Below the pieces are notes generated by a model, which was not told the DNA's origin, did not search any database, and saw only the letters and a program-made list of their open reading frames with translations. A stretch of DNA of 37,299 nt from a virus: the IMG/VR virus record IMGVR_UViG_3300033516_000134, positions 1 to 37,299 of that record; one strand, written 5' to 3'. Shown piece by piece: positions 697-24,207 of this stretch (position 1 is the first letter of the stretch; every line of letters starts with the position of its first letter). Both the position numbers and the translations under genes were made by a program.

Positions 697-1436
697 GGCA
701 GTCCAATCATGACTTGCGTCCCGAACGCCTCGGAGTTCAACGACTGCTGTTGAACGAATGCTATTCCGTTCATCGCATTGTTAGACTTTACCGCAGTTAG
801 CGTAATTACATACGCCTCTGCGCTGGCGCTTGCCGATGCAGTAACGGTCATGGTGTGTCCACCATCAACCATAGTGAAGAGCGAAACTGTTCCGCCAGCA
901 ATCGGGACCATGACGGTTCCGGCGAATAACGGTCCACTGAATGCAACGTCATATCCACCCGGATCCCATACCCAGGTCGGTCTTGTCAGCGGGTAAAAAT
1001 AAAACTCACGGGTGTTGTCGAGCAGAAACACCTTCAGATGGGTCGCAACTCCACCAGAATAGACAATGCCAAACCGCAGCGGCACGGTCCCGAAGTAATA
1101 GCCGCCTGCAGAATAATCGAACCCGATCGACAGCGGCAACGCGCACGACATAATGCGGCGTGGAAAGACCGGGTACGATGCTGACCCGCCTGGACCTCCA
1201 GTGGCGCTGATGATCTTGCGGTAATACTCGTTTTCGAGGGTGCGCGATCCAATGTCGCTAGGCCAGTTGATAGACGCCGCAAGTGCGATCTGATCCTGTG
1301 CAACCGGGGTGACGCCACCATCGACTGCCACAAGGCCAGCAACTAAATCATACGGGTTGTCGCGCAATCGCCGCATGAGCGAGTGCGTGATCGGTGATCC
1401 TGGGTCAACATCGCTGTCAAGGATGATCTGATACAT
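693..1436 (-). CDS. Tail fibre / receptor-binding candidate (paralogue B of three)
   Basis: 247-aa ORF. N-terminus YQIILDSDVDPGSPITHSLMRRLRDN is shared with neighbours; C-terminal part is divergent and beta-rich; 1-nt gap to upstream gene. Confidence 0.6.
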   Translation of the reverse strand: MYQIILDSDVDPGSPITHSLMRRLRDNPYDLVAGLVAVDGGVTPVAQDQIALAASINWPSDIGSRTLENEYYRKIISATGGPGGSASYPVFPRRIMSCALPLSIGFDYSAGGYYFGTVPLRFGIVYSGGVATHLKVFLLDNTREFYFYPLTRPTWVWDPGGYDVAFSGPLFAGTVMVPIAGGTVSLFTMVDGGHTMTVTASASASAEAYVITLTAVKSNNAMNGIAFVQQQSLNSEAFGTQVMIGLP

Positions 1437-1437
1437 A

Positions 1438-2148
1438 CTATCCCCTCGCTGCCAGTTTCTTTGCGGTGCGCCATGTGGTCACCTCCCAGCCTGCGTTCAC
1501 CGTGGACCACGACGGAGCAGTCATGCGCGTCCTGATGTATAGTCCATTCGCGTCCTCGGTAATATCTATCCAGAACGTCATGTCTCCACGCTCGGTGTTA
1601 TAGAGCGCAACAGCAAGCGAAGCGCCAGAGGCAATACTTATGCCGCTGCACAGATTGATAAGGGGTGGACCGTTTGATCCGTACATAATCGGAAAGTATG
1701 CCGACGATAGCGTTCTGCCTGATGCCTCTCGCTGCAGCCTGATCGCACCGTTGATCGAAGCGCCGCTGATCGACGCGCCGCCTGTGCTGTCCGCAGTCAC
1801 ATAGAGGCGTAGCGTCAGCGAAAGGTTTCCGCTAGAGTGCAAAGCGGACAGTCGCGTATCGTAGATGGTGACATCTAGCTCGCTCGGATTGGTCTTACTG
1901 TAAAACTCTTTTGTCGCTCCGATGATTGAAACCGCGCCGCCCGGTGCTGCAGCGCCGCTGTCTTGGTAATAATCCTCGTTTGAATCCTCGAAGTCATATT
2001 GCGGGACAACGATTGGAGTCGGGTTCGTTGAATCAACGCCCATTGCCGCAAGGTAATTGTTCCGCAGGCGAACAAAGATCGACGCCAGGGGTTCGTCCCC
2101 TGGTTCAATTTCGCTGTCGAGGATCGGCGTGTATATGGGAACCGGCAT
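1438..2148 (-). CDS. Tail fibre / receptor-binding candidate (paralogue A of three)
   Basis: 236-aa ORF. N-terminus IYTPILDSEIEPGDEPLASIFVRLRNN is shared with neighbours; follows the 609-aa tail protein after a 1-nt gap. Confidence 0.6.
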   Translation of the reverse strand: MPVPIYTPILDSEIEPGDEPLASIFVRLRNNYLAAMGVDSTNPTPIVVPQYDFEDSNEDYYQDSGAAAPGGAVSIIGATKEFYSKTNPSELDVTIYDTRLSALHSSGNLSLTLRLYVTADSTGGASISGASINGAIRLQREASGRTLSSAYFPIMYGSNGPPLINLCSGISIASGASLAVALYNTERGDMTFWIDITEDANGLYIRTRMTAPSWSTVNAGWEVTTWRTAKKLAARG

Positions 2149-2149
2149 G

Positions 2150-3979
2150 TTAGGTCATTTCGTATGCGGGTGATCCGTTGCTCATCAGACCAAGGTCATC
2201 CGATATGTAAACCCATGCCGCACGATCCGAGGGTGAGGCGCTGCCATAGTTCGCTGGTGCTGGGATCGGGTCGAGCAGATCGGCAGGGTGCGTGATCTTG
2301 GCTTGACTTCCAATCGCCAGGACTTCCAGCCCGACGCAATCATAGAGCAGCCCGGTCGTGTCGCCCTTTTCCTGCATCTGGGTCAGCAAGGCATAGACCG
2401 ATGATGGAGCGCCGTAGATGTCCTGCGCCTGCCGGGTTGTGACTGACACGATGTCGCCAACCCAGAACCCGTCATCCTTCGGGTCGAGGGAAAAGCTGAC
2501 CACGCGCCTGATGTTTTCGTACTGCTGCAGCAGGTTGCCGTTGATCTGGATGACGGTCGCAACATCAGCGACGGTCAGCCACCTCGACCGCACGGTGCGG
2601 ATGGATGGCTTGCCATACTGCAGGTCGCTTTCACGGTCCAGATTCACACGGACATCGGTGGTGCGATAGGACTGCAGCAGTTCCATGTTCGCCAACGGCC
2701 AGGACAGGTCGAACATCATCCATGTTTGAGTGATGAGCGTTGCCGAGTCCGTCATCACCTGCACGGAATCAGCGACCAGATGATCCGCTTCGTTCAGAAA
2801 TGCAGACGCAGAGTCCTCCGCACGCACCCCCTTCAGCTTCACTTTTTGATCCCGGTCGTGCCACCAGATGATGACGCCGAGTTGCGTCAGTTCGGTGATC
2901 AGCGTTTTCACATCGGTCGGATTCACAATCAAGGCGCTGATGGAGAGGTACGAATACTGATCGTCAATCAGCGTGACCCAGTTCGCGTAGTCGAGGAACG
3001 ATGCGTCGATGCCTGCCGCTCTGTTCAGCAGATCGAACAGGACATCGTAGATCATCTGCTCATCGTACCACCAGCACGGGACCACGCCTGCGCCGATTCT
3101 GTGTTCCTTCGCCACATTGTAGCTTGGCTCATATCTGGCAGGCATCGACGCCCGATTGACGGTGAGCGTTGCCGATGCGGTGCCGATGCCGGTTTGCGCC
3201 GTCACCAGCATGATCTCATCCTCGACGCGTATGTACCGCTGACTGGCGTTCCACCATGTCAGCAGGTCTTCAGCAGGCGCAACGGTCAGGATCGTTGCGA
3301 CATCGTTCGCCAGGACGGACAGCTTGGCAACGCTCGCCTGCGGAACCTTCGCCTTTTCTCCATCAGCGAAGCGCAGCGGATCCTTCCCGTTGATCGTGAC
3401 TACCCCGTTCTGATCTGGTCCGGTGATGTCCGAAACGATGTAGCTGCGCGAGCGAAAGTTTGCCGCATCATAGCTACCGTCAGGGTTCAGGAACCCGGTG
3501 CGGATGACCAGCCTGCGGTTTGCCCAGAACTTATTTCGAGCCAGCCACTTGCCCCAGAATGTCCCTTGTGCATCGGGCTGGTAGGCGCGGGTCGAAAGGT
3601 ACGGGTCGCAGCCCGAGTCGGACCACGGGTGATCTTGGATGGTGATGCTGACCGATGAGCGGACGCCCAGCCCCTTGCCCGGCTGCAGGATGGCAGTGGT
3701 TGAATCGACATTGATGATGGTCGGGATCACTGGCGGCTCGCCTGCCGCCTGCAGCCCGTCGAGGCGCACCGTGCTGAAGCGATAGGGAACATCCGCCTGC
3801 GCGTAGTTCGGCTCATCCTGGCAGGAAGATAGGGTGTTGAAGCACAGCTGCGCTCCAGTGACTCCGACCGCTGCGGTGCATGGCGCAGATCCATAGACGC
3901 GCGTGCATCGTGGGCTGGGTAGCTCCACGATATAGACCAGCGCCTTGCCGTATTCGTTTGCGCGCTCTACGAAGGTCAT
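2150..3979 (-). CDS. Tail tip / baseplate hub protein candidate
   Basis: 609-aa ORF, second gene after the tape measure, 4-nt overlap with upstream ORF. N-terminal four-Cys cluster (C25, C34, C46, C53). Function assigned from position only. Confidence 0.5.
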   Translation of the reverse strand: MTFVERANEYGKALVYIVELPSPRCTRVYGSAPCTAAVGVTGAQLCFNTLSSCQDEPNYAQADVPYRFSTVRLDGLQAAGEPPVIPTIINVDSTTAILQPGKGLGVRSSVSITIQDHPWSDSGCDPYLSTRAYQPDAQGTFWGKWLARNKFWANRRLVIRTGFLNPDGSYDAANFRSRSYIVSDITGPDQNGVVTINGKDPLRFADGEKAKVPQASVAKLSVLANDVATILTVAPAEDLLTWWNASQRYIRVEDEIMLVTAQTGIGTASATLTVNRASMPARYEPSYNVAKEHRIGAGVVPCWWYDEQMIYDVLFDLLNRAAGIDASFLDYANWVTLIDDQYSYLSISALIVNPTDVKTLITELTQLGVIIWWHDRDQKVKLKGVRAEDSASAFLNEADHLVADSVQVMTDSATLITQTWMMFDLSWPLANMELLQSYRTTDVRVNLDRESDLQYGKPSIRTVRSRWLTVADVATVIQINGNLLQQYENIRRVVSFSLDPKDDGFWVGDIVSVTTRQAQDIYGAPSSVYALLTQMQEKGDTTGLLYDCVGLEVLAIGSQAKITHPADLLDPIPAPANYGSASPSDRAAWVYISDDLGLMSNGSPAYEMT

Positions 3980-4743
3980 TGCGTAAGGAACCTTATCGGC
4001 ATTTCCACCTTCATGCGCGGAGGTGGACGGTCATTGGTCGGCGCATTGATTTCGGTCGCAACCGCGAACGCAATTTCCTGCGCGTGACCGGCAGGATCCC
4101 ACTGCCAGAAAAACGCCTTGCGTGCGGCATGGATGGCGAAGGGATCCCAGGTCGAGCGGACCCATGCAGGGTCAAGCAGGTTCAATGACAGCTTGCCGTT
4201 CTTTTCAATCCGCTTGATGTTGCGACCGAGGATGCTGCCGTTCATGCTGGCAATGTTCTGCAGGATCACCCCCTGGTACAGCTCGGGCGGTGAGACATCC
4301 GCCCACTGGCCGATGGGGAACTCCATCGCTGATCCGATCGCAACCTGACGAATGTCGATCGTGGCACCTGGCGTTGCCGGTTCCCAGACAATGCGGTATC
4401 GCGCATAGGTCATGCTGACCGAGGACCAGATCATCGTCGCTCCACTAAGCCCGACGCTGACCACATCTGCCCATGATCCAGAGAACCGCTGCAGCTTGAG
4501 GTTCCCAGATGATCCAGCGGCAGCGACCCAGAGGACGAAGGTAGTCACCGCCTCCGCGCCACCCATATTCACTTCGAGGTTTTGACCATCGTCCATCCTG
4601 AAGATTGTGAAGTCGCGCCAGTCGTAGGCGTTGACCGGCTCGAACCCGCTGATGGGTGTGCCGCTATAGGTGACGGTTCCTCGCGCGTAGAAATTATCAT
4701 ACAGCACCTTCGCCTTGGTCATCGACGGTTCGTATGGCATCAC
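3976..4743 (-). CDS. Distal tail protein candidate
   Basis: 255-aa ORF immediately downstream of the tape measure gene (4-nt overlap). Function assigned from conserved siphovirus gene order only. Confidence 0.45.
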   Translation of the reverse strand: MMPYEPSMTKAKVLYDNFYARGTVTYSGTPISGFEPVNAYDWRDFTIFRMDDGQNLEVNMGGAEAVTTFVLWVAAAGSSGNLKLQRFSGSWADVVSVGLSGATMIWSSVSMTYARYRIVWEPATPGATIDIRQVAIGSAMEFPIGQWADVSPPELYQGVILQNIASMNGSILGRNIKRIEKNGKLSLNLLDPAWVRSTWDPFAIHAARKAFFWQWDPAGHAQEIAFAVATEINAPTNDRPPPRMKVEMPIRFLTQ

Positions 4744-7277
4744 ATCACCTGCGCTTTCAGAGTCATGTTGTCGCCTGCCTGCTCGTTGATCGCTCCGATC
4801 AAACCGCGCACCTGCCCGGCGCTGAAGTTGTTTCCATAGAGCGAGACATTGACCTGCGATGTTGACCCGGCGCTGCGCTCATCGGTTGACGCGCCGGTTC
4901 CATTGCCCTGCGATGTTGCGCCGCCGCCGCCACCGCCTGCGCTGCCTCCACCCTGGTACTGGGTGGTTGCGATCTTGATGACATTCGCCATGCCTGCCGC
5001 GACGATCATCGCGGTCGCGGCAATAGCTGCGGCTGGACCCATCGTGGCAGCGGACGCCATAGCGTTCGTCGCTGCGAGGTAGGTGCTGATCGTGGCTTGC
5101 GCTATGCTGAACGCCTTCCACATCATAAACTCTTTACGTTTTTTCTGATCCATCGCAGCAGCGAAAGCGCCGAACATATTGCCCATCGCACCAAGCACCA
5201 TCTGTTCAGCCGCCATGCGTAGCTGCGACTCGGTTTGCTTGATCTTGGTCATCGCCGTTTCGTGCGCGGCGTATGCTGCTTCCTGCGTGGCGTATGCCTG
5301 CTCGTCCGTCGCCTGACCAGCAGCCCACTCGCTCTGCGCCGCTGCCAGTTTGTCGGCAAGGCGCTGGTCCTCAATCGCGCGCATCGCCTCGAAGGACTCG
5401 AAGCGTTGAGCGAGCGAGAGGTCCGAGTATTGGGTCTGCAGATTCAGGCGTTCCATTTCGGCATCGGCAACAAGGTCGCGCATCTTGCCTTCGTGCGCCA
5501 TCCGCAGCGAAGCAATCGCTTCCATCTTTTCCGACTCTTTGCCGATCGCCTCGGCATTGAACGCCTCTAGCGCCGCAAGCCTTTCAGCATAGACGGTGCG
5601 CTCTGCTTCGACTGGACCCATTGCGCCGAGCATGAAGTCCGCGCGAGCCTGCGCCGCCTTATCGTACAAACCCTTCCATTCATCGGACAGTTTGTCGATT
5701 GCCGCCTGCTCATCATCAGTCGTGACGCGCATCGCTGGCGCAGCGCCACGCACCGGGGCAACGGACGGACCAGTCGCCGCTTCGTTTGCCTTTTCAATTT
5801 CTGTGCTGACTCCCGCCCACTGCATGACCAGATTGTGAATGGATGATTCGCTTGCAATGCGGTTGAAGTAGTCAACGGTTTTCTGCGTAGCTCCAGCGAA
5901 CTCGTCCTTCAGATCAGCGAACCAGCCCGAGACGAAAGACTTCCCGTTGACATTGCCAAGCCCGTCCAGAGCGCCGCGCATCTGGTCGGTGCCGATCTTG
6001 ACCCGACCGCTGGCCGATTCGATGCCGCGCTTGACATCGGTATCGACGGTCATCGCCCAGTTCTCGAAGTCCATACCAAGCTGCGCCAGCGACTCACCGC
6101 CAGCGATACCGAACTGCTTGAACAGTTCGCCAAGGTTCCGCATCTTGCCAGCAATGTTCATCGACAACCACTTGAACAGTTCCAAGAACCCACCCTTGAT
6201 GTTCTGGAACAGGTAGTCGAGACTGCCCCAGATCACCTTCGCCATACCGGCGAACAGATCGACAAGGCCAGGGATCGCGCGACCGAGATAGGTGACGAAC
6301 TGGACCGCCTTTTCCAGCGCAGCCGACAAGGCGTAGCCGATGCCGCTGCCGAGTCCCTTCAGAGCGGTGAACGCCAGATCGACAACGCGCCACAGATCCA
6401 GCACCACCGCCACCGCCAGCTTGGCAGTCTCGGTCACGATGCCGAGGATAGTGCCAACCGACCCGCTTGCCTCGGTCGCCTTGCGTGCTTCCTGCGCCAT
6501 CCACGAAAAGTCATCAGCGACGGCGGCAATCGCCTTGCCGCTCATCGTTTCGATTGTCCCCTTCAGCTTTTCAATTTCGTCGCCTGCATCCTTCAGCGCA
6601 GAGACTTCGAGCTTCGAGAGAACGCGACCCGTCCGCTCCGCTTCCAGTCCGGTCTGCTTGATCGCCTCCGCACCCATGCCGACCAGTTCGGCCATGTTGC
6701 GTGCTTCCTTGCCGAAGATCATCTGCGACATGGCGTAGCGATCTTGTGAATTCGTGACGGTATTCAGCCCTTCGGCCAGCCGGTAAAACGCTTCCTCGGT
6801 CCCGGCTTCCTTCAGGGACGCTGCGCTGGTCCCGAAGTTGCGGAGGATCTGCGCCGCATCGGACCCGCTGTCGGATGCCGCAGAAATGAACTGCGACATC
6901 TTGAGCAGCGAATTGTTCATGCCTGACATCGAACTGCCCGACTCGACCGCCGCAGCCTGAAGGCGCTGCAGTTGCTCGACCGTCATGCCGAGCGCCGCCG
7001 CAGTTTTCCCGAGACTGTCGCCACGCTCGAAGGCAGCGGACACGGTGCTGAAGGTTGCGTAGGCAGCAGCCGCGCCAACCATCGCACCGCCGAAGGACTT
7101 CACATGGCTGGCAACGGCAGCAAAGGACGCACCGATCTTGGAGTCGATGCGTCCCGTGACTGCGGTGATGTTGCGCTGGAACTCGGTCGCCGCCTGCTGC
7201 GCCTTGACGAAAGCAGCCTGCAGCCCGGCAGATGATCCGGTGATGGCGACCGAGAGGGTTCCGACCTGCTGCGTCAT
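4740..7277 (-). CDS. Tail tape measure protein
   Basis: 845 aa, Ala/Gln/Glu-rich helical sequence with hydrophobic Ala/Gly segments and a Gly-rich tail (GGGSAGGGGGGATSQGNG). Directly follows the chaperone pair; its ATG overlaps the stop of the frameshift ORF (ATGA). Confidence 0.85.
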   Translation of the reverse strand: MTQQVGTLSVAITGSSAGLQAAFVKAQQAATEFQRNITAVTGRIDSKIGASFAAVASHVKSFGGAMVGAAAAYATFSTVSAAFERGDSLGKTAAALGMTVEQLQRLQAAAVESGSSMSGMNNSLLKMSQFISAASDSGSDAAQILRNFGTSAASLKEAGTEEAFYRLAEGLNTVTNSQDRYAMSQMIFGKEARNMAELVGMGAEAIKQTGLEAERTGRVLSKLEVSALKDAGDEIEKLKGTIETMSGKAIAAVADDFSWMAQEARKATEASGSVGTILGIVTETAKLAVAVVLDLWRVVDLAFTALKGLGSGIGYALSAALEKAVQFVTYLGRAIPGLVDLFAGMAKVIWGSLDYLFQNIKGGFLELFKWLSMNIAGKMRNLGELFKQFGIAGGESLAQLGMDFENWAMTVDTDVKRGIESASGRVKIGTDQMRGALDGLGNVNGKSFVSGWFADLKDEFAGATQKTVDYFNRIASESSIHNLVMQWAGVSTEIEKANEAATGPSVAPVRGAAPAMRVTTDDEQAAIDKLSDEWKGLYDKAAQARADFMLGAMGPVEAERTVYAERLAALEAFNAEAIGKESEKMEAIASLRMAHEGKMRDLVADAEMERLNLQTQYSDLSLAQRFESFEAMRAIEDQRLADKLAAAQSEWAAGQATDEQAYATQEAAYAAHETAMTKIKQTESQLRMAAEQMVLGAMGNMFGAFAAAMDQKKRKEFMMWKAFSIAQATISTYLAATNAMASAATMGPAAAIAATAMIVAAGMANVIKIATTQYQGGGSAGGGGGGATSQGNGTGASTDERSAGSTSQVNVSLYGNNFSAGQVRGLIGAINEQAGDNMTLKAQVM

Positions 7278-7525
7278 AGCTCGACTCCGATGGTCCGTAG
7301 ATGTTCCGTCAAGCCAGCCAGCCGGTCCTCGTCATAGAGGCTGCTGTTCCCGACCTGAACCGTCCGCACTTTCGCGCGCACTTCCATCAGCAGGCACATT
7401 TCCCGATAGGTCATGTTCCAGGCATCGTCCATGCGCTGCCCATATTCGAGGACGCAGATTGCGGCGCAGGCACTCCAGTCGAGTCCGTCGCCTAGTTCTA
7501 GGTCTGCGCCGCTTCCGGTTTTCCC
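7274..7525 (-). CDS. -1 frameshift extension of the tail assembly chaperone (gpGT-like product)
   Basis: My own translation of the -1 frame gives an open 81-codon frame from the slippery site to TGA at 7276-7274: TGSGADLELGDGLDWSACAAICVLEYGQRMDDAWNMTYREMCLLMEVRAK...IGVEL. It has no start codon near its 5' end and fills the otherwise empty gap between chaperone and tape measure. Confidence 0.7.
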   Translation of the reverse strand, partial: GKTGSGADLELGDGLDWSACAAICVLEYGQRMDDAWNMTYREMCLLMEVRAKVRTVQVGNSSLYDEDRLAGLTEHLRTIGVEL

Positions 7526-7881
7526 TCGGCCACCGCATCCTTCGCCTGACGGAGTGCCTTTTCGCCGGTCACGGCGTTGCCCAGGAACTCCATGTAGTTC
7601 GGAATATGGTTCGCCAGCCCGTCACGGTAGATCGCTGCGCCGATCTCATCGAAGGTCGGAGGACGCGCGTGCGACTTCCATGCAGCGGTGATGCCTGCAT
7701 GGTATGCCGCAGCGACCGCCTTGAACGGTGCGCTCTGCCTTTCGCCCAACGCCTTCATCGCCTCGAAGACCGACATATGCGCTCGGTCCTCGAAGGCGAC
7801 GATGGCGGCAAACGATGGCCGCATGATGTAAGTTTTTCCGTCAAGGGTGACTTCGATTTCACCCGCTGCGACATTAGCCAT
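7498..7881 (-). CDS. Tail assembly chaperone (GTA g10-like)
   Basis: 127 aa between the major tail protein and the tape measure. N-terminus GEIEVTLDGKTYIMRPSFAAIVAFED resembles GTA-type chaperones; a slippery site sits near the 3' end. Confidence 0.75.
   Translation of the reverse strand: MANVAAGEIEVTLDGKTYIMRPSFAAIVAFEDRAHMSVFEAMKALGERQSAPFKAVAAAYHAGITAAWKSHARPPTFDEIGAAIYRDGLANHIPNYMEFLGNAVTGEKALRQAKDAVAEGKPEAAQT
7519..7525 (-). promoter_or_regulatory. Slippery heptamer G_GGA_AAA for -1 programmed ribosomal frameshifting
   Basis: Plus strand ttttccc equals minus strand GGGAAAA. The zero-frame phasing GAG GGA AAA CCG (EGKP of the chaperone) fits the X_XXY_YYZ rule. It lies 6 codons before the chaperone stop. 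Confidence 0.7.
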
Positions 7882-11009: not shown

Positions 11010-13844
11010 CTATGCTGGTTCGATGATGAGCCACGCGACATCGACTGTCGATGATCCGGTGACGGTGATGCTGAAACTTGTTCCAGGGATGCGGCTGGTT
11101 ACTTCTGCTGCGGTCGCGGTGCCGCCGTTAGCCTGAACGCATAGGAAGATGCGCGAGTTGGCGGTCACCTTGGTCGTGCTGACGGTCGCTGATCCACCGC
11201 TGGTTGCGACAAGCCCCATCGTGGCATCGCTACCCTCCGCAACCTTCACACCCTTGCCTGCGGTGCCGCACACAATGTCCCCACCAAACCACGACTCACC
11301 GCCGATCACTCTGATCGCCTGATTGCGTGTGCTTCCTCTGGTTGGTTCTTCGATGACGATTCCATAGTGATTCGTTATCGACACGCCGGATGCGAGCGGA
11401 GGCAGGTTGGCGATGTATCCGCCATAGTAGTTGGTCAGCGCGAGCGCACCGCCTGCCCCGAGTGCCTGACCAAGATCGCCCTTTTCGTACCAGCCAGCAA
11501 CTCCAGTGACTATGCGCGATGTGACTAATGCCGAGTTGCTGCGCAGGTTTGTGCGGTTAGCAGACAACGCGACGATTGCAGTCTTGTCGCCGGTGATGTT
11601 CTGGACGCTTGGCTGGTTGAGGATGCTAGCGCATTCAGCGGTGGTCGATGCGCCGCCTGTAAGCTGCCCAAATGTCCTGACTGCTGCTCCAAGATCATTG
11701 CTGATGCTGCGGTACACATCGGCACCGCCATTCGCGGCAACGGTCGGGGCGAATGTGATTGAATTCTGCTGAACCGTAACTAGCGCAGTACCGGCGATGG
11801 TGATAGTGAACGATGTGGATATCAGGCGCGATGAGGCAAACGCTGTGTTGATCGCGCTGCCGCTGGTCCCTGCCGCATATGCGCGATGCTCTACCGCTCC
11901 ACCTGCCGCACTCCCCGTTCCGCGACCGGCATAGATGATGAGGTCAGCGCCAGCGATGTTGGTTCCGGTTGCGTCCGTGGTCTGGAAAGTGAAAGCGGCA
12001 GGAGTGGCGCTGGTCGGTCCGCTGCCAACAATCATCTGCGTGTACCCATCACCTGCGCCACCGATCACAATCTGGTTCGTAGCGGTGGTCCATGAGTCAG
12101 TGCCGAGTACAAGGCAGTCCAGATGATCGGCAACGCTGGACCAGCCAATAACGATGGAGTCCTCAACCGGAACCGAAACATGACCACCGATGCCGATTCC
12201 GCGACCGACACCTGAACTCACCGATGCGCCGCGACCGATGGCGATGGTGTCGTTTGATCTTGATGCCGCGCCTTGCCCAACTGCGATTGAACCGGACCCG
12301 CTGGCGATGACCGAGCCTCCGATGCCGACCACATTAGTAGCCGACTCACAGTTGGCGTTGTTTCCAATAAGCACGCCAGCGCCGGTCTTCGCAACACCGC
12401 CAGGTCTTCCTGCCCTGTACCCGATGGCTATCATATTGGCAGATTGCGAGTATGCCTCGCTTCCGATGACAACGCATCTGTTCGCATTGCCCGATGCTAA
12501 CCCTCCAATCGCAACGCTTTCCTCCCCTGCGCCTGCGGTGTCTCCAATCGCAACGCCAAAGGCACCATCGACGCCGCTGTCAGCGCCGATGCTGACCGCT
12601 CCATCACCTGCGACGAACACATGGGCATCTGATCCGATAGCGATGGAGTCTTGACCATCCGCACCGATGTTGTCTCCAATGGCAATGCTGTTTGATCCAG
12701 TTGCGTTGGCTTGGTATCCAAGCGCGACAGCGTTATTACCTGTCGCATATGACGATGCTCCAACCACGATGCTTCCGCCTGCCGTCGCCTCACTCGCACC
12801 GCCAACGCAGATTGATTGTGCTCCAACCGCCTCGGCAAAACATCCGACCGCAATACTCAGGTCCGAGGATGAAACGGCACTATCGCCAACCGCAACAGAC
12901 TGCGTTCCGTTGGAGACCACATTGTTGCCGATGCCGACCACGAACGCAGCCGAACCAGGGTCAGCGTTTGAGCCAACAAGCACGCCTCCGCCAACCCGAG
13001 TCACGCCGCCTGGGCGACCAGCACGATAGCCAATGGCTATGCCTGTTCCGGTTGCCTCCTGACCCACAGCAACGGCATAGTCTGAAGTTGCTGAGGCTGA
13101 CCGACCCACGACCACTACACCGCTGGCCGATGCCGTCACGCCGAACCCGATGGCGGTGACATAGGTCGCACCGTAGCTGCCGACCACACCGGTGGCGCTG
13201 CCGAGCAAGATGCCGTTCTGAAGGTTGATCGTGGATGCGCCGCCGCGCACGATGCAGATGCCGTTGTTGCCGAGTATGCCTGTGCGATCACTCGCCAGGA
13301 TCAGCATGCCGTTGGAGCCAGATGCGGTGCCGGTTGCCCGACCAAACACTGCGTTGGCACCACCAACCGATCCGTGAACCAGCAGATCAGCGCCAACCGC
13401 CACGGTGCGCGACAGGTCGGAGCCGACAGGCGCAAAGGTGATCGACGCGCCAACAGCAACCGCCTGCGTTCCAGGCACCGAGCCAAAGTGACCTGGGCCT
13501 GCGACAAATGAGTTGTCAATCTTGGCAGGATCTGGTGAGGCTCGCAAAGATCCAACCACACGCAGCGCCGAGGCATCCCAGGTCAGGTTTGCGTCTGCTG
13601 TGATGCTGTCGGTGCTGGCCCAGAACGCGACCGCAGATGCGATGCCACTGCCGCGACCTTCGACACGGGTGCCGAGGTCGGCAACGATGCCGCTGATGCC
13701 AAGGTCGGCGTATGCCTGCGCGACCACATCGGACCAGAGGATATGGCGCGAGCCTGTCGGGCTGGTGTCGATGACGGCATACAGCAGAGCGCCGCCAGCG
13801 AGCGTGGCGACTGAAGTAAGCGCCGAAACCTTGATGCCTGCCAT
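11010..13844 (-). CDS. Large fibre protein with Gly-rich adhesin-like (YadA-head / beta-roll type) repeats
   Basis: 944 aa. The central ~450 aa is made of degenerate SIAVG / AVALG / SIAIG units. There is an internal duplication (IAIGYRAGRPGGV... at aa 269 and aa 472). No signal peptide or membrane anchor. The C-terminal ~100 aa are beta-rich. Confidence 0.6.
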   Translation of the reverse strand: MAGIKVSALTSVATLAGGALLYAVIDTSPTGSRHILWSDVVAQAYADLGISGIVADLGTRVEGRGSGIASAVAFWASTDSITADANLTWDASALRVVGSLRASPDPAKIDNSFVAGPGHFGSVPGTQAVAVGASITFAPVGSDLSRTVAVGADLLVHGSVGGANAVFGRATGTASGSNGMLILASDRTGILGNNGICIVRGGASTINLQNGILLGSATGVVGSYGATYVTAIGFGVTASASGVVVVGRSASATSDYAVAVGQEATGTGIAIGYRAGRPGGVTRVGGGVLVGSNADPGSAAFVVGIGNNVVSNGTQSVAVGDSAVSSSDLSIAVGCFAEAVGAQSICVGGASEATAGGSIVVGASSYATGNNAVALGYQANATGSNSIAIGDNIGADGQDSIAIGSDAHVFVAGDGAVSIGADSGVDGAFGVAIGDTAGAGEESVAIGGLASGNANRCVVIGSEAYSQSANMIAIGYRAGRPGGVAKTGAGVLIGNNANCESATNVVGIGGSVIASGSGSIAVGQGAASRSNDTIAIGRGASVSSGVGRGIGIGGHVSVPVEDSIVIGWSSVADHLDCLVLGTDSWTTATNQIVIGGAGDGYTQMIVGSGPTSATPAAFTFQTTDATGTNIAGADLIIYAGRGTGSAAGGAVEHRAYAAGTSGSAINTAFASSRLISTSFTITIAGTALVTVQQNSITFAPTVAANGGADVYRSISNDLGAAVRTFGQLTGGASTTAECASILNQPSVQNITGDKTAIVALSANRTNLRSNSALVTSRIVTGVAGWYEKGDLGQALGAGGALALTNYYGGYIANLPPLASGVSITNHYGIVIEEPTRGSTRNQAIRVIGGESWFGGDIVCGTAGKGVKVAEGSDATMGLVATSGGSATVSTTKVTANSRIFLCVQANGGTATAAEVTSRIPGTSFSITVTGSSTVDVAWLIIEPA

Positions 13845-19502: not shown

Positions 19503-20795
19503 TCACAGGGACCGGACCCGAGGCTCGGCGTGCGCGCCGATCATCAGGTCAGTCACCAGCCAGACCAGCGCATCCATGCGGTCGGGCGACCGCTTGCTGG
19601 TGGCAGGATCGAAGGAAGTCATCTGGTCTTCGAGGGCTGCATGCTGCCCGACATGATGCACCCGGCCCTGCTCATAGAGCGCAGCGATGGGTTCCGCGCG
19701 GATCGCCTTGCCTCGGGTGGCATGAACTGCCCGGTAGGAAACCATCGGATCGACGGTGCGTATGGTCGCCTCGACCAGATCACCGCCGTTGTTCACCTCG
19801 GCAATGATCCGATCCGCGCAGTTGTCCTGATACCATCCGACCGCCGCCTTCGCCCACTCCAGCGCCGCCATGTGACCCGAGAGGTCGGCCAGGATGTAAG
19901 CGTGACCATCCTCGCCAAGCCCACCCGCAACGATGCCGGTTTCGTCTGAGTCTGGATTGCTGGTGACTGCCGGGTCGATGGCAATGGCGATGCGGCGCAG
20001 CGCAGGCGCATGCCGCACCCGGTTGCGTTCGATGACCCGCCCGTTCCACAAAGCGCCTGGGTTGTCATCCAGCACCTCCGCTTCGATTTCCTGCCTGCCC
20101 AGGCGCGTGCCTTCGTAGCGGGTGAGGATTTCTGACAGGAAGTTCTGCGCCAGATTGCCAGCGTTGTCATAGGTGCTGCCGCCAGTCACCGTGCAATCGT
20201 GGCGCGACAGCAGTTCGCGGATCAGCTTGGTCGGTCGCGGCGTGGTGGTGATGCAGGCTTGCGGATGCTCACCCAGGCGCAGACCGAACATCAGATTGTC
20301 CCAGGTTTCCCGATCGTAGCGCCATGCCGCGAGTTCATCGGCCCAGCATGCGGTGTGCTGGGGACCGCGCAGCAGATCCGGTTCGTCGGCGCTGAAGCAG
20401 GTCGCCGTTGCGCCGCTGGCGAAAGTGATTCGTCGCTTGCTTGGCTCATAGTTCGGTCGCTCGGAATCAGGGAACACCCGCATGATGCCGCTCGGTCCTT
20501 CGACCATGACATCGCGCACATCGGCTGCGGTTCTTCCGACTAAGGCGATCACCTCGTTGCGGTTCCGCACCCGCTCGCGTATCCATTCCGCTCCGGTGCG
20601 CGTCTTGCCCCAGCCGCGACCCGCCTTGATGAGCCAGAGCGTCCAGCCACCGGGCGGCGCGACCTGCTCGGGTCTTGCCCACATCCGCCATGACCAGATC
20701 AGCAGCCCGGCAGGCACCCCGTTGAGCAGCCAGCGACGTTCCTGCGGACTCAGTTTGGCAATGCGTTCAGCCAGCGACGGGTGGCGGTGCTGCAT
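19503..20795 (-). CDS. terL: Terminase large subunit
   Basis: Walker A GRGWGKTRTGAEW and a C-terminal nuclease-type region. The likely start is MQHRHPSLAER at 20795 (ORF-track start 20861 lies inside terS). Confidence 0.9.
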   Translation of the reverse strand: MQHRHPSLAERIAKLSPQERRWLLNGVPAGLLIWSWRMWARPEQVAPPGGWTLWLIKAGRGWGKTRTGAEWIRERVRNRNEVIALVGRTAADVRDVMVEGPSGIMRVFPDSERPNYEPSKRRITFASGATATCFSADEPDLLRGPQHTACWADELAAWRYDRETWDNLMFGLRLGEHPQACITTTPRPTKLIRELLSRHDCTVTGGSTYDNAGNLAQNFLSEILTRYEGTRLGRQEIEAEVLDDNPGALWNGRVIERNRVRHAPALRRIAIAIDPAVTSNPDSDETGIVAGGLGEDGHAYILADLSGHMAALEWAKAAVGWYQDNCADRIIAEVNNGGDLVEATIRTVDPMVSYRAVHATRGKAIRAEPIAALYEQGRVHHVGQHAALEDQMTSFDPATSKRSPDRMDALVWLVTDLMIGAHAEPRVRSL

Positions 20796-21228
20796 CGCTG
20801 CCCTCTCGCTGGTCCGTCTTCCGCTGCTTGATTTCACCCAGGCGCTTAAACCTCGTTTCAAGCAGGTCGATCAGGCGCGCGGCGTTTTCGTCCGTGGGCT
20901 TGGCTTCCTCGAATACGATACCCGTGGTTTCGCGCCACCCACCCTGGCACTTGAGATAGAATATCAGAGCGGACAGGTTCGGGCGGGTTCCCTTCGCCTG
21001 ATCACCGACCGCCATGTTATAGAGCGCCGCGCCTGCTCGCGCCACGCTCTGCGCTCGACCTTCGTTGAATGTCCCGATCATCCAGCGCCGCAGCGACTCT
21101 TCATCGAACCCGGTGATGAGCGCCGTTTGTGCGAGGTTGCACCCGCTGGCCGAGCAGGTGCGAACCTTGGAAATCAGTTCCGCCGTGATGTCGGCCCGGC
21201 GACGGATGCGCTGGCGTTTCTCGCTCAT
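20767..21228 (-). CDS. terS: Terminase small subunit candidate (HTH type)
   Basis: 153 aa directly upstream of and overlapping terL, with an N-terminal HTH-like segment and LIFYLKCQGGWRE resembling small-terminase motifs. Confidence 0.65.
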   Translation of the reverse strand: MSEKRQRIRRRADITAELISKVRTCSASGCNLAQTALITGFDEESLRRWMIGTFNEGRAQSVARAGAALYNMAVGDQAKGTRPNLSALIFYLKCQGGWRETTGIVFEEAKPTDENAARLIDLLETRFKRLGEIKQRKTDQREGSDAAPPPVAG

Positions 21229-21343: not shown

Positions 21344-22003
21344 TCATTCGTGTCCAGCCAGGAAGTCCATAGCCATCAGTTCAAGCGCACGACCCTCGCT
21401 CATATCGGTCGAGTTCTCGCGCACGCGAATAGCGTTCACCGCTCGCGCGACCACCTCGAACTGATCGGCGGTCAGCGTGACTTCATGGGTCAGCAGGCTA
21501 TCGTCTGCGGGTTCCTCTGGCGCTGCTGCATCATCGAAGGCGGCGCGAGCGATGGCATGCAGGTCGCCATCGGTGAACCCCAGCATGTGAACATCGAAGT
21601 CGGCAGTCTGCAGTTCGGTCAGGTTTTCGTGCAGCGCCTCCCAGTCCCAGGTCGCCAGTTCAGACGATCGGTTGTCTGCGATGGCATAGGCTCGGGCGGT
21701 CGCGTCATCATCCTCGACCAGAGCGGCAGCGATGAACGGCCAGCCGAGGCGCTGCGCTGCTGCCAGCGTCCCGTTGCCAGCCAGCACCGTCCGATCAGAG
21801 CGGCGCACCACGATCGGGCGGCGCTGCCTGAAGCGAGCGAGCGAGTCGGCAATGGCGTCGAGGTTGCGCTGGTTGTGCTTCCTGGCGTTGCGCTCATCCA
21901 TCCGCACCGACACCAGCGGCACCGCCAGAGCATGCAGCGCAGGCACGATGTTCTGCATGCCATCCGGTGGGATGTCTGGTGCATCGTCCTGCGCTGCGCT
22001 CAT
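21344..22003 (-). CDS. ParB/Srx N-terminal domain protein (second copy)
   Basis: 219 aa with DERNARKHNQRNLDAIADSL...PIVV...VLAGNGTLAAAQRLG...ARAYAIADNR, a ParB-like nuclease-domain pattern. No methyltransferase domain follows. Confidence 0.7.
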   Translation of the reverse strand: MSAAQDDAPDIPPDGMQNIVPALHALAVPLVSVRMDERNARKHNQRNLDAIADSLARFRQRRPIVVRRSDRTVLAGNGTLAAAQRLGWPFIAAALVEDDDATARAYAIADNRSSELATWDWEALHENLTELQTADFDVHMLGFTDGDLHAIARAAFDDAAAPEEPADDSLLTHEVTLTADQFEVVARAVNAIRVRENSTDMSEGRALELMAMDFLAGHE

Positions 22004-22005
22004 GG

Positions 22006-22266
22006 TCAGACCGTCCAGTTGCGAGGAATGGTGCGCCAGCCGAGGACCGCGACGGGTTCGCCGCTGCGATGGAACGCCTGGACATGCAGCAGCGCCGGGT
22101 TCGGTGAGGCGACCTGCCCGAACTCAACGATGTCGATTCCGCCGCTCTGCAGGATCACGATGACTCGCGCTCCGTTGCGAGGCGTGCGCGTGATCGGATG
22201 GAAGCCGCGCGGAATGGTAAGCGCCGGTTTCGGTTCCTGCGCCTGGGGTTCTAGGGTTTCGGACAT
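22006..22266 (-). CDS. Hypothetical small protein
   Basis: 86-aa ORF overlapping the XRE gene by 16 nt, ending 2 nt before the ParB-N gene; no motif recognised. Confidence 0.55.
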   Translation of the reverse strand: MSETLEPQAQEPKPALTIPRGFHPITRTPRNGARVIVILQSGGIDIVEFGQVASPNPALLHVQAFHRSGEPVAVLGWRTIPRNWTV

Positions 22267-22511
22267 GGTTCCTCCTGAGTGCCTGCCGGTTCATCAAGCG
22301 AAGCGAGTAGCGGTATCGGGTCGATGCCTGCGTGCCGGGTCAGCGAGGCGAAGGACAGCAGAGTCGGCAGGCGCTTGCCGGTTTCATAGCGGCACGCCTC
22401 CACTGCGCTGATGCCAGCGGCGCGAGCGAACGCAGCCTGAGTCGGTATGCCTGCGTCGATGCGTGCGCGGATCAGCGCCGCAGCGAAGGACTTGTGCTGA
22501 TCGTCAGGCAT
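22251..22511 (-). CDS. XRE-family helix-turn-helix transcriptional regulator
   Basis: 86 aa. IRARIDAGIPTQAAFARAAGISAVEACRYETGKRLPTL is a typical HTH_3 pattern. Confidence 0.75.
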   Translation of the reverse strand: MPDDQHKSFAAALIRARIDAGIPTQAAFARAAGISAVEACRYETGKRLPTLLSFASLTRHAGIDPIPLLASLDEPAGTQEEPCPKP

Positions 22512-23211
22512 CGGCGCTGCCCTTCGCCTTGCCGAGATACATCCGCGCGCCTGCCTTGTCGATGTCCGAGAACGGCAGGACCGGCACGGTCAGGCGCTCG
22601 CGCACGCCGGGCTTGAGCGGCAGAATGTAGCGCAGTTGGAAGCCGGGCAGGCTGCGGACATTCGGCAGACCCGTGATGTTCTTGCTCGGCCAGTTCGTGA
22701 TGCCGCAGGCTTCCAGCACCTTGCGCCGAACCTCTGGCGCGCACCGAAAGCTGATGTCGGTGAATATGACATTGCCGACCTGCATCAGCGTTTTGTTGCT
22801 CTTGATCCCGGTCAGCAGGAAGCCAGAGGCACGGTAGATGGTTCCGTCGCCGCATTGGGTTCCATCGCTGAACGACAAGATCCACTCCAGGTTCGGGTAT
22901 GCTCGCTTGAGCAGGCGCACGCCGACGCTGATGAATCTTGACTCGGTGTTCTTCGGCGTGGCGTCGATCATCGCCATGCGGTTCAGTTCGATCATGTCAT
23001 GCCAGCGAGTGCCGCGCACCAGCGGCAGAACATGACCCCGGTCCATCGGTGGTCCTAGCAGCATGACGCCGACCAATCGCGCGTCCATGAACGCGCCGAG
23101 GTGGACTTGTGAATTATTCACCGTCCCGCCAGAATAGTGCCACCGCTCAACGAAGCGCCGCGCGTCATCGCTGCGGATCGGCGCGACTCTGATGTCCTTA
23201 GCGGTTGCCAT
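22504..23211 (-). CDS. Mom-family-like (GNAT-fold) DNA base modification enzyme candidate
   Basis: 235 aa with the ordered motifs FVERWHYSGG, IELNRM, PKNTES, SFSDGTQCGDGTIYRASGF and GFQLRYILPL, recalled from Mom-family adenine methylcarbamoylation proteins. Not verified by any search. Confidence 0.5.
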   Translation of the reverse strand: MATAKDIRVAPIRSDDARRFVERWHYSGGTVNNSQVHLGAFMDARLVGVMLLGPPMDRGHVLPLVRGTRWHDMIELNRMAMIDATPKNTESRFISVGVRLLKRAYPNLEWILSFSDGTQCGDGTIYRASGFLLTGIKSNKTLMQVGNVIFTDISFRCAPEVRRKVLEACGITNWPSKNITGLPNVRSLPGFQLRYILPLKPGVRERLTVPVLPFSDIDKAGARMYLGKAKGSADA

Positions 23212-23818
23212 TGCGGCACGCCTTCAGGATCGCAGCAGATGGATTGTTCGACTCGAAGGTATCTAGCCACGCCATCACTTCGTCGCGTTCCGAGAGGGGC
23301 AGGCGGATCGTTATGGTGCCGATGTCATCAGCGCCACGGTCGCCTGCGCCGAGGTCAGGCATTGCCGCATCCTGCACGCCGATTCCGATGGCGGTCAGTT
23401 CTTCAGGCGCGAACCCGATCACGCCCAGGTTGAACCAGTCTTCGTTGAGCGCCTGCAGTTCGATTGCCAGCGCCTCGTCATCCCACCCGGCGTTGAGCGC
23501 CAGCTTGTTGTCTGCGATGACATAGGCTCGGCGCTGCGACTCGGACAGATGCGAGAGGCGCACGCATGGGACCGCATCTAGCCCGAGCAGCCGCGCCGCA
23601 AGCACGCGACCGTGACCTGCGATGATGGTCCCGGCTGCGTCGATCAGCACCGGGTTCGTCCAGCCGAACTCTCGGATGCTGGCGACAATCTGCGCGACCT
23701 GCGCCTCCGAGTGCGTGCGCGAGTTGCGAGCAAACGGGACCAGCGTTGCAAGCGGCAGTCGCTCCATCGCTTCAGGCATCCAGGGAAGGGGCGGCTGGCT
23801 GGCGCGGCTGGCTGGCAT
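23198..23818 (-). CDS. ParB/Srx N-terminal domain protein (first copy)
   Basis: 206 aa with PFARNSRTHSEAQVAQIVASIREFGWTNPVLID..IIAGHGRVLAARLLG...RRAYVIADNKLALNAGWD. This domain type is usually fused to phage DNA methyltransferases, but here it stands alone. Confidence 0.75.
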   Translation of the reverse strand: MPASRASQPPLPWMPEAMERLPLATLVPFARNSRTHSEAQVAQIVASIREFGWTNPVLIDAAGTIIAGHGRVLAARLLGLDAVPCVRLSHLSESQRRAYVIADNKLALNAGWDDEALAIELQALNEDWFNLGVIGFAPEELTAIGIGVQDAAMPDLGAGDRGADDIGTITIRLPLSERDEVMAWLDTFESNNPSAAILKACRNGNR

Positions 23819-23966
23819 GCCTGGACTCTGGCGGCATGGCCGTCCCGGTCAACGCCCCTTGCCTCGGCTGGGAAACTGGGCCAGGTTCTAACTGCATGAC
23901 TGGTCGATGGTTGACGATGACCTGGATTCCTATTGATTGCACGCCATTGCCAGCACAGTAGGCAGC
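23819..23966. promoter_or_regulatory. Divergent early/late control region
   Basis: The only gap between the two divergent transcription units. -35-like hexamers are TTGACG (23911-23916, plus strand) and TTGACC (23852-23847, minus strand). No convincing -10 boxes seen. Confidence 0.4.
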
Positions 23967-24167
23967 ATGAGCAACGCCCCTGCCCCCCTCACCCGCGACG
24001 ATGCCGATGCGCTCGCCATGATGATCGCCGCGCGCCACGATGGTTGCCGCCTGCCCTGCGGCGCTGAACTGCGCGCAATCTGGCACGATGCCTGCCCGAT
24101 CATCCGCCCGACCGCGACCGCCATTGCCCAGGTGCGCCGCGCCGCTCACCGCCTCGGCCTGATCTGA
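23967..24167 (+). CDS. Hypothetical small protein (first early gene)
   Basis: ORF 23937..24167; I prefer the ATG at 23967 (MSNAPAPLTRDDADALAMM...). Codon bias is consistent with coding. Confidence 0.5.
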   Translation: MSNAPAPLTRDDADALAMMIAARHDGCRLPCGAELRAIWHDACPIIRPTATAIAQVRRAAHRLGLI

Positions 24168-24207
24168 TCCCCTTCCCATCCACCCCGCTTCACCGCACGG
24201 AGCAACC

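Follow-up and report, generated by a model that had tools for sequence, protein, structure and literature searches.

What function is served by five tightly packed genes that lie immediately upstream of the terminase genes in an uncultivated phage? The question arises from IMG/VR virus record IMGVR_UViG_3300033516_000134, all 37,299 nucleotides (nt) of which were analyzed here and are referred to as the window. Reading downstream, the five minus-strand genes encode a ParB-fold protein (ParB-A), a protein resembling Mom of phage Mu, a small XRE-like protein, a short product that we call orfD, and a second ParB-fold protein (ParB-E). Mom is the textbook case of adenine hypermodification by phages, and the Mu enzyme is known to be toxic. 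A sequence-only reading of the window had treated the whole cassette as one multicomponent hypermodification system with its own regulator. Our analysis supports a smaller unit. We think it probable that the core is a two-gene hypermodification module, made up of ParB-A and the Mom-like protein, which occupies a slot where related phages keep ParB-methyltransferase genes.

The 235-amino-acid (aa) protein is a true member of the Mom family, as the sequence-only reading had recognized from a handful of motifs. It matched Pfam family PF25680 at 156.5 bits (cutoff, 27.1; E = 9.4e-46), with residues 7 to 215 spanning profile positions 2 to 201 of 202, and PHROG 1384, "Mom-like DNA modification protein" (E = 1e-43). 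Among solved structures, the only significant match by sequence was Mu Mom (8bv8; E = 4e-21). An AlphaFold model built from 43 homologues, with a predicted local distance difference test score (pLDDT) of 90 and a predicted template modeling score (pTM) of 0.83, led back to the same structure in Foldseek, where the best matches were 8bv8_A and 8bv8_B (E = 6e-17; TM, 0.66 to 0.75). Ordinary GNAT enzymes appeared at 1.7e-5 or worse, twelve orders of magnitude behind. In addition, the model contains the Mom-specific insertion, a set of strands and helices at residues 142 to 168 within the GNAT core. An exact-product lookup returned no recorded protein identical to the window Mom.

Support for a two-gene module comes from the neighborhoods of related Mom genes. 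Survey loci were fetched with Mom as the sole query, so that sampling was not biased toward ParB, and their ORFs (open reading frames) were searched with ParB and Mom profiles built in the analysis. Unless given as raw, counts refer to Mom sequences that are nonredundant at 90% identity and to a ParB gene upstream on the same strand. Relatives in GTDB genomes were found with a 43-sequence Mom alignment; a GTDB scan with the single window protein returned none. Among window-type Moms in IMG/VR (42 to 67% identical to the window protein), a ParB gene was adjacent in 68 of 71 cases and within 2.5 kb in 2 more. The corresponding numbers for window-type Moms in GTDB genomes were 57 and 7 of 67 assessable loci, and for the closest relatives they were 3 and 1 of 4. 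In total, ParB adjoined Mom in 128 of 142 assessable loci of this clade and lay within 2.5 kb in another 10, including one locus (L010) that was counted as "within 2.5 kb" but whose called ParB and Mom genes are in fact adjacent. Linkage was complete (42/42) among actinophage-type Moms, which are only ~24% identical to the window protein. No ParB gene was found, either adjacent or within 2.5 kb, for Mu-type Moms (43 raw loci, five of them nonredundant) or for the Moms of Enterococcus VP16, Listeria LP-026, Vibrio ICP1, and Salmonella SP-031 (0/4).

Where the pair occurs, the ParB stop and the Mom start usually overlap, typically by 4, 8, or 14 nt. The GTDB hosts include Proteobacteria, Bacteroidota, Firmicutes, Actinobacteria, Chloroflexi, Planctomycetes, Verrucomicrobia, and candidate phyla. 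Many related loci have a TerS homologue directly after Mom, and the order ParB-Mom-TerS-TerL was seen in L180, L181, L310, L312, L011, and many others. Cultured phages carry the pair as well, although it has drawn no comment there. Psychrobacter phage Y8A has a ParB gene, a "hypothetical protein," and then TerS, and the actinophages provide Microbacterium phage Warren (gp46 and gp47) and Arthrobacter phage BarretLemon (gp69 and gp71). In these two actinophages, replication genes surround the pair and the terminase is distant; the linkage is therefore to Mom rather than to packaging. The conserved unit is thus two genes, ParB then Mom, usually with overlapping stop and start. The recurrence that the sequence-only reading had proposed to check holds strongly for this pair; it does not extend to a second ParB gene downstream of Mom, which was present in 2 of ~140 nonredundant loci (L385 and L388).

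The survey also turned up some departures from the simple pair. Five loci from Bradyrhizobium and related genomes (L326, L347, L354, L357, and L363) carry a window-type Mom without an adjacent ParB, although L357 has ParB genes ~2 kb upstream. They represent one prophage lineage and offer a natural comparison group without the linkage inside the linked clade. Two loci (L099 and L100) have a ParB gene followed by tandem Mom paralogues of 255 aa, which overlaps ParB by 4 nt, and 243 aa. The "hypothetical protein" of phage Y8A (vB_PmaS_Y8A; L011) shares 47% identity with the window Mom. In the paper describing Y8A, however, Mom is assigned to a different gene, ORF69, and the phage may carry two Mom-like genes.

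The window protein also keeps six active-site residues known from Mu Mom. In an alignment with Mom of phage D108, a Mu strain (Muvirus mu), numbered after the full-length Mu protein, residues H25, Y26, R78, S91, D116, and Y126 of the window protein correspond to Mu H58, Y59, R111, S124, D149, and Y159. These residues line the donor/acceptor cleft of Mu Mom, and mutants in them are impaired (PMC7261163, PMC13219725). Overall identity to Mu Mom is 29%. The six columns are invariant in 90 of 90 window-type sequences and in all full-length Mu-type sequences. S124 is replaced by threonine in 5 of 63 actinophage-type Moms and in Salmonella phage SP-031; across all Mom clades examined, the six columns are invariant or close to it. 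Three further Mu positions behave differently. R151 (essential), W48 (involved in dimerization), and W181 are T118, D15, and an isoleucine in the window protein, and among the ~190 sequences tabulated they are conserved only in the Mu type. They define the Mu subgroup rather than the Mom family, and they do not track with ParB linkage. We considered them as a signature of ParB dependence and rejected the idea, since they are also missing in the ParB-free Moms of Enterococcus, Listeria, ICP1, and Salmonella. Two segments of the model are of lower confidence: the catalytic loop at residues 111 to 120 (SFSDGTQCGD), which has a pLDDT of 67 yet is nearly invariant, and a conserved C-terminal tail at residues 221 to 235 (G221, A222, M224, Y225, and G227).

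The product that the sequence-only reading had named, N6-methylcarbamoyl-adenine, is outdated. Work published in 2026 showed that Mu Mom transfers glycine from Gly-tRNAGly to the N6 of adenine in double-stranded DNA (dsDNA), that the adduct rearranges to N6-carbamoylmethyl-deoxyadenosine (N6-carbamoylmethyl-dA), and that the reaction is not based on acyl coenzyme A (acyl-CoA) (PMC13219725). From family membership, we infer the same glycyl transfer for the window enzyme. Genomic context fits this chemistry. When 180 related loci were scanned for tRNA genes, every typed tRNA gene within ~50 nt downstream of Mom was a tRNA-Gly, with anticodon CCC, ACC, or UCC and on either strand. At least 11 such loci were found in several phyla. 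A twelfth (L360) has its tRNA-Gly ~350 nt from Mom, and L071 has an odd tRNA-like gene at the position directly after Mom. The only other tRNAs, which lie 2.3 to 3.4 kb from Mom, are for Thr (L032), Arg (L057), and Ser (two in L365). The pattern suggests that some phages bring their own co-substrate. It also provides independent genomic support for tRNA-dependent chemistry outside Mu, and the 2026 paper on Mom does not mention it in its main text (PMC13219725). A tRNA scan of the window itself found no tRNA gene.

Both ParB proteins belong to the ParB/Srx fold. They scored below the Pfam ParB_N cutoff of 26.3 bits (ParB-A, 22.5; ParB-E, 20.1), and PHROG ParB families matched the two at E = 1e-52 and 1e-31 (PHROG 15396/620/498 for ParB-A, at about 1e-50; PHROG 498/620/723 for ParB-E). 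Against the partition family TIGR00180, they reached 23.2 and 26.6 bits where the cutoff is 58.45, and only in their N-terminal part. ParB-A aligns to Spo0J structures across boxes I to III (E = 9e-6). It keeps the GxxR arginine in its P-motif, AGHGR, as well as the box III asparagine. A weak match of ParB-A to PDB entry 9lw9, "adaptor protein gp8" (E = 0.48), was not traceable in the literature. The P-motif arginine is required for nucleotide binding in characterized ParB-fold proteins (PMC12704722), and it is lost from the motif of ParB-E, AGNGT. This loss is a property of the ParB-E subfamily: across 36 homologues, AGNG never varies, and conservation of the threonine that follows reaches at least 90%. 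In the AlphaFold model of ParB-E (pLDDT 90), the ParB N-domain is followed by a helical segment, and a disordered linker then leads to a hairpin of helices at the C terminus; the best matches of the model are Noc, ParB, PadC, and KorB (E down to 3e-6). Each multi-ParB locus in which both P-motifs could be read has one ParB that keeps the arginine and one that lacks it, which hints at a pairing of active and inactive subunits.

Neither ParB carries the C-terminal PF01555 methyltransferase domain with which its relatives are often fused. Both cover only positions 5 to 147 of the 436-position PADLOC MTase_II model and only positions 27 to 181 of the 633-position ParB-methyltransferase family PHROG 498. 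We retrieved 84 loci with ParB-A or ParB-E as the query, most of them via ParB-A and most of them 53 to 70% identical to its N-domain. Among these, 43 encode fusions of ParB to a DPPY methyltransferase, 11 have ParB followed by Mom, and 21 have a stand-alone ParB. Most of the nearest relatives of ParB-A are such methyltransferase fusions. The sequence-only reading was right to see in the two proteins a module that is otherwise joined to N6/N4 methyltransferases. It was also right, as far as tested, that the genome lacks a methyltransferase: none of the 37 window ORFs scanned against Pfam has such a domain, and the motif [DNS]PP[YFW] is absent from every window ORF of at least 150 aa.

What occupies the position ahead of the terminase genes varies among related phages. 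A sister phage (L313), which shares 74% identity with the window in TerS and 76% in TerL, has a methyltransferase in this same slot. Its protein P0242 combines an orfD-like N-domain with an N6/N4 methyltransferase and is encoded directly upstream of TerS-TerL-portal. Together with the ParB-methyltransferase fusions, this supports the earlier suggestion that a methyltransferase was swapped for Mom, as an exchange of modules. A third kind of occupant is found in L309, where an E-type ParB, which shares 42% identity with ParB-E over 93% of the latter, precedes a 313-aa protein without a Pfam match and a QueC homologue, presumably a 7-deazaguanine DNA-modification module that uses the same ParB subfamily as ParB-E. 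The pre-terminase slot is a swap site in which the ParB-fold module is constant and the enzyme is variable (methyltransferase, Mom, or QueC-containing module). A "ParB-terminase large subunit locus" had already been defined computationally by the Aravind group and predicted to modify DNA during packaging (PMC4738411).

The ParB partners have often been exchanged too. By P-motif class, 244 ParB-Mom pairs fell into AGHGR (118), AGNGT-like (~33), DGHLR (19), and others, and both major ParB classes are used by both Mom clades. In L181, where Mom shares 60% identity with the window Mom, the ParB shares 59% with ParB-A. The three nearest relatives of the window Mom pair with NGHTR, AGHGR, and AGNGT ParBs, for which reason we rejected co-evolution of Mom with a single ParB type. 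E-type ParBs can be full Mom partners: full-length examples lie immediately upstream of Mom in L003 to L008, L068, L076, L310, and L312, and others precede the QueC module or are fused to PF01555. In the window, ParB-E is followed directly by TerS rather than by an enzyme.

We can now return to the five-gene cassette. The gene calls of the sequence-only reading were reproduced exactly, including coordinates, junctions, and every quoted peptide motif. ParB-A and Mom overlap by 14 nt, Mom and XRE by 8 nt, and XRE and orfD by 16 nt; a 2-nt gap separates orfD from ParB-E, and TerS lies 115 nt beyond. Each ORF has a coding bias (G+C content higher at third than at second codon positions, GC3 > GC2, in a genome of 64% GC), and an AGGAGG ribosome-binding site is present at orfD. 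Four of the five proteins have profile-family matches. The exception is orfD, which had no Pfam, PHROG, or NCBIfam match and only six homologues in a set of 1.84 billion representatives. P0242 ranks first among them; here the orfD-like region (59% identical) forms the N-terminal domain of a 331-aa PF01555 N6_N4_Mtase protein. XRE fell below the cutoffs for HTH_31 (23.7 bits; cutoff, 27) and HTH_3 (17.2 bits; cutoff, 23) and had a weak RstR-like match in NCBIfam (E = 4.6e-5).

These genes do not form a conserved system. Among the fetched loci, an XRE homologue was found only in L010, upstream of ParB-Mom, and an orfD homologue only in L313, which had itself been fetched via an orfD homologue. 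The closest relatives (Mom 60 to 65% identical) have ParB-Mom, then a small TerS-like gene, and then TerL (L180 and L181), and the three with readable downstream sequence show just ParB-Mom-TerS-TerL or its start. Because counterparts of XRE, orfD, and a ParB downstream of Mom are so rare among the surveyed loci, the five-gene unit proposed from the sequence is not upheld, and XRE-orfD-ParB-E is a lineage-specific insertion between Mom and TerS. The insertion nevertheless has a common theme, in that the relatives of orfD and ParB-E belong to DNA-modification genes. Most likely, the inserted genes either tune the core module by adding a second adaptor and a regulator or remain from a second module that was swapped in.

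How might the module work? In the reading we favor, the Mom-like protein would move glycine from host Gly-tRNAGly onto the N6 of adenine in double-stranded phage DNA, and the adduct would become N6-carbamoylmethyl-dA, which would block restriction enzymes. ParB-A would serve as a dedicated helper, a ParB-fold protein binding nucleoside triphosphates (NTPs) that would engage duplex DNA, by loading onto it or holding it, and would activate Mom or bring it into position. This role is suggested because of the gene linkage and by analogy with ParB-dependent thymine dioxygenases and with the ParB domains that are fused to methyltransferases. With the genes placed first in the packaging operon, modification could be timed to just before encapsidation, thereby limiting the toxicity of Mom. 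ParB-E, orfD, and XRE may be modulators of the module or a partly dismantled second one. We propose, by the same analogy, that the window protein belongs to a ParB-assisted subclass of Mom.

Several observations weigh against this reading. Mu Mom works alone in vitro, and two randomly chosen metagenomic Mom homologues were reported active in a study that does not state whether ParB was co-expressed (PMC13219725). If either homologue is ParB linked and was nonetheless expressed alone, ParB is not strictly needed for catalysis. The frequent swapping of ParB types argues against a tight, co-evolved interface between the two proteins, and a Bradyrhizobium prophage lineage inside the window-type clade has no adjacent ParB. 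Furthermore, R151, W48, and W181, which are important for the activity of Mu Mom, are not conserved in the window protein, though they are peculiar to the Mu type; and XRE and orfD do not recur with Mom. A bolder version of our proposal would hold that most non-Mu Moms, in prophages of more than 10 phyla, are obligate two-component enzymes that act on duplex DNA with a ParB-fold NTPase, and that in the window two ParBs, of which only one keeps the nucleotide-binding arginine, and a protein with a methyltransferase-type N-domain form a mixed adaptor that sets where or when adenines are glycylated just before packaging. We regard this version as unlikely.

Two rival readings concern the three extra genes. 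They could be what is left of another modification module that has lost its enzyme, unrelated to the function of Mom or decaying. The slot is clearly an exchange hot spot, an orfD-methyltransferase fusion occupies exactly this position in the sister phage, and E-type ParBs normally precede an enzyme or are fused to one, while ParB-E precedes TerS, 115 nt away. Yet all three genes are intact with coding GC3 bias, and ParB-E keeps the invariant residues of its subfamily, a full-length C-terminal domain, and a confident predicted structure (pLDDT 90). This explanation is possible, but we find it doubtful. At the other extreme, all five genes could make up one self-regulated machine, with ParB-A and ParB-E as the NTP-binding and the arginine-less subunit of a heteromeric adaptor, orfD for DNA targeting, and XRE for control. 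The tight junctions favor such an arrangement, as do the use of E-type ParBs as genuine Mom partners elsewhere, the fusion of the orfD domain to a DNA methyltransferase in L313, and the XRE homologue ahead of ParB-Mom in L010. Multi-ParB loci point the same way, with a ParB(AGHTR)-Mom-ParB(AGNGL) sandwich in L385 and tandem GHTT and GHVR ParBs before Mom in L370. However, the single XRE and orfD homologues among the fetched loci are not in the same position as in the window, downstream ParBs are rare, and the closest relatives do with ParB-Mom-TerS-TerL only, all of which makes one machine improbable in our judgment.

Two other explanations bear on the core pair itself. One is that Mom of the window clade departs from Mu Mom in the adduct it forms or in its substrate (with a different aminoacyl-tRNA or acyl-CoA as donor, or RNA or protein as target), with ParB providing specificity. 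The low identity to Mu Mom would allow it, as would the replacement of the essential R151 along with W48 and W181 and the low model confidence in the catalytic loop. We consider this quite unlikely, given that donor- and acceptor-site residues are invariant, or nearly so, across all Mom clades, that the Mom-specific insertion is present in the model, and that tRNA-Gly lies beside Mom in at least 12 related loci. The other, close to an alternative offered in the sequence-only reading, is that the ParB-like proteins are packaging or partition-type proteins, or nucleases, with no functional relationship to Mom. Many phage ParB-like genes do lie upstream of terS, the family is often annotated as "ParB-like nuclease domain," and 21 of the 84 ParB-query loci hold a stand-alone ParB without a recognized enzyme. 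Nevertheless, ParB adjoins Mom in ~90% of window-type and 100% of actinophage-type loci, usually with overlapping stop and start; the pair also occurs far from the terminase in some phages; and both proteins score under the TIGR00180 cutoff. We therefore see very little room for it. The two-gene module of ParB-A and Mom remains our preferred interpretation.

Parts of this picture are already known: the Mom family and the ParB-terminase modification locus have been described, and ParB has been shown to activate a DNA-modifying enzyme. Mom itself was solved mechanistically in 2026 and described as a single-enzyme system, in a paper from which the term "ParB" is absent (PMC13219725). The earlier remark that no described Mom system with ParB partners was known stands insofar as we did not find the pairing in the searchable literature, though Iyer et al. 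2013 and 2009 may mention it; it needs to be qualified by the ParB-terminase modification loci that were known before (PMC4738411). Our survey adds that in two large Mom clades, across many phyla, the Mom gene is almost never alone but is coupled to a ParB-fold gene. If ParB proves to be required or modulatory, the ParB-activator principle, shown so far for thymine dioxygenases only, would reach a second, unrelated class of enzymes. Any lack of activity in mined Mom homologues that are expressed alone would then have an explanation, and the pair would provide a co-expression recipe for enzymatic adenine labeling tools.

The broader setting of the module is a temperate-looking siphophage contig, with the cassette at the start of the operon for packaging and structural genes (Table 1). 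Portal, MuF, prohead protease, and HK97-type capsid genes follow TerL, and the opposite strand beyond the divergent intergenic region carries early genes, including those for DUF932, ERF, and a DUF3799 PDDEXK protein. The placement at the head of a late operon, as the sequence-only reading had it, agrees with gene order, ParB-A being the first gene after the intergenic region; it rests on gene order only, because a simple consensus scan of that region found no sigma-70 promoter. The window ORFs that were scanned include no ParA-like gene, and megablast returned no match in cultured phages to the right 22 kb of the window. The longest ORF for TerL opens with a TTG codon, giving a 95-nt overlap with TerS, and this start is probably too far upstream; translation may begin instead at the ATG of MQHRHPSL, a choice that leaves some overlap with the TerS end. 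Between the capsid and head-tail connector genes lies a 944-aa ORF that combines YadA-head repeats with a C-terminal K1-lyase domain, an unusual place for a fibre- or depolymerase-like protein. Around it, GC content falls to 0.59, compared with ~0.64.

Table 1. Positions of the cassette, its surroundings, and the features of related loci discussed in the text
Sequence	Feature	Position	Strand	Description
Window	ParB-A	23198-23818	-	206 aa; stand-alone ParB/Srx-fold protein, conserved partner upstream of Mom; Arg-containing P-motif AGHGR
Window	Mom-like	22504-23211	-	235 aa; Mom-family GNAT enzyme, predicted tRNA-dependent DNA adenine-N6 glycyl transferase, sole catalytic part of cassette
Window	XRE	22251-22511	-	86 aa; small putative helix-turn-helix protein, possible regulator, lineage-specific
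Window	orfD	22006-22266	-	86 aa; rare small domain
Window	ParB-E	21344-22003	-	219 aa; second ParB-fold protein, distinct subfamily; Arg-less P-motif AGNGT
Window	TerS	20767-21228	-	PHROG 309; downstream limit of modification slot
Window	TerL	19503-20861	-	Pfam Terminase_6N and Terminase_6C
Window	Divergent intergenic region	23819-24207		~390 nt upstream of ParB-A; presumed control region of packaging/late operon
Window	944-aa ORF	11010-13844	-	YadA-head repeats, K1-lyase C-terminal domain
L385	ParB	575-1201		One of two ParBs flanking Mom; P-motifs of the two, AGHTR (Arg-containing) and AGNGL
L385	ParB	1911-2441		Other ParB flanking Mom; P-motifs of the two, AGHTR and AGNGL (Arg-less)
L370	ParB pair	3802-4404, 4394-5008		Tandem ParBs, one with Arg-containing GHVR and one with Arg-less GHTT
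L313	P0242	63-1058		orfD-like N-domain and N6/N4 methyltransferase
L309	ParB-QueC module	2827-5091		E-type ParB, 313-aa protein, QueC homologue
L099	ParB and tandem Moms	2928-5100		255-aa and 243-aa paralogues
L011	Mom-like "hypothetical protein"	4001-4654		Phage Y8A, record positions 7125-7778
L009	tRNA-Gly	6787-6861		Directly after Mom
L054	tRNA-Gly	1247-1322		Directly after Mom
L012	tRNA-Gly	4666-4740		Directly after Mom
L229	tRNA-Gly	3660-3734		Directly after Mom
L232	tRNA-Gly	983-1056		Directly after Mom
L260	tRNA-Gly	3649-3721		Directly after Mom
L262	tRNA-Gly	1919-1992		Directly after Mom
L300	tRNA-Gly	2854-2925		Directly after Mom
L333	tRNA-Gly	2465-2540		Directly after Mom
L376	tRNA-Gly	5638-5711		Directly after Mom
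L381	tRNA-Gly	5768-5839		Directly after Mom
L360	tRNA-Gly	6037-6107		~350 nt from Mom

Comparison with known systems helps to place the module. Mu Mom (8bv8) is alike in its Pfam family, its GNAT fold with the Mom-specific insertion, and its six active-site residues; it is a late-expressed phage gene with an anti-restriction role, as the window gene is predicted to be. Unlike it, the window Mom lacks the Mu residues R151, W48, and W181, is not preceded by Com, and lies at the head of the packaging operon, whereas the Mu gene lies at the end of the genome; it is also paired with a ParB, in contrast to the single-enzyme system described for Mu. Partition ParB, Noc, and KorB, which are cytidine triphosphate (CTP)-dependent DNA clamps, share the fold, and ParB-A keeps their GxxR arginine and box III asparagine. 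The window ParBs differ from these clamps in having no recognized centromere-binding helix-turn-helix, and ParB-E also lacks the P-motif arginine.

The ParB-N6/N4 methyltransferase fusions (PHROG 498; PMC4738411) resemble the module in position and partner. Their ParB module is homologous, with up to ~70% identity to ParB-A, they too lie directly upstream of terS/terL, and their presumed role is to modify DNA just before packaging; in the window, neither ParB is part of a fusion, and the enzyme is encoded separately by the Mom gene. In organization, a further parallel is the phage pair 5mYOX176/ParB176, reported in PNAS in 2026, in which the thymine dioxygenase needs ParB specifically on dsDNA (PMC13229309). 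There, as in the window, the gene for a postreplicative phage DNA-modifying enzyme adjoins that for a short ParB-fold protein. The dioxygenase ParBs have a similar layout, with an N-terminal nucleotide-binding domain, a helical linker, a C-terminal helical domain, and no obvious DNA-binding domain, and the dioxygenases, like the Moms, are split into ParB-linked and ParB-free subclasses (PMC13229309). The chemistry sets the two apart, since the dioxygenases are iron- and 2-oxoglutarate-dependent (Fe/2OG) enzymes acting on thymine, whereas the window enzyme would be a GNAT aminoacyl transferase acting on adenine, with a putative dependence on ParB.

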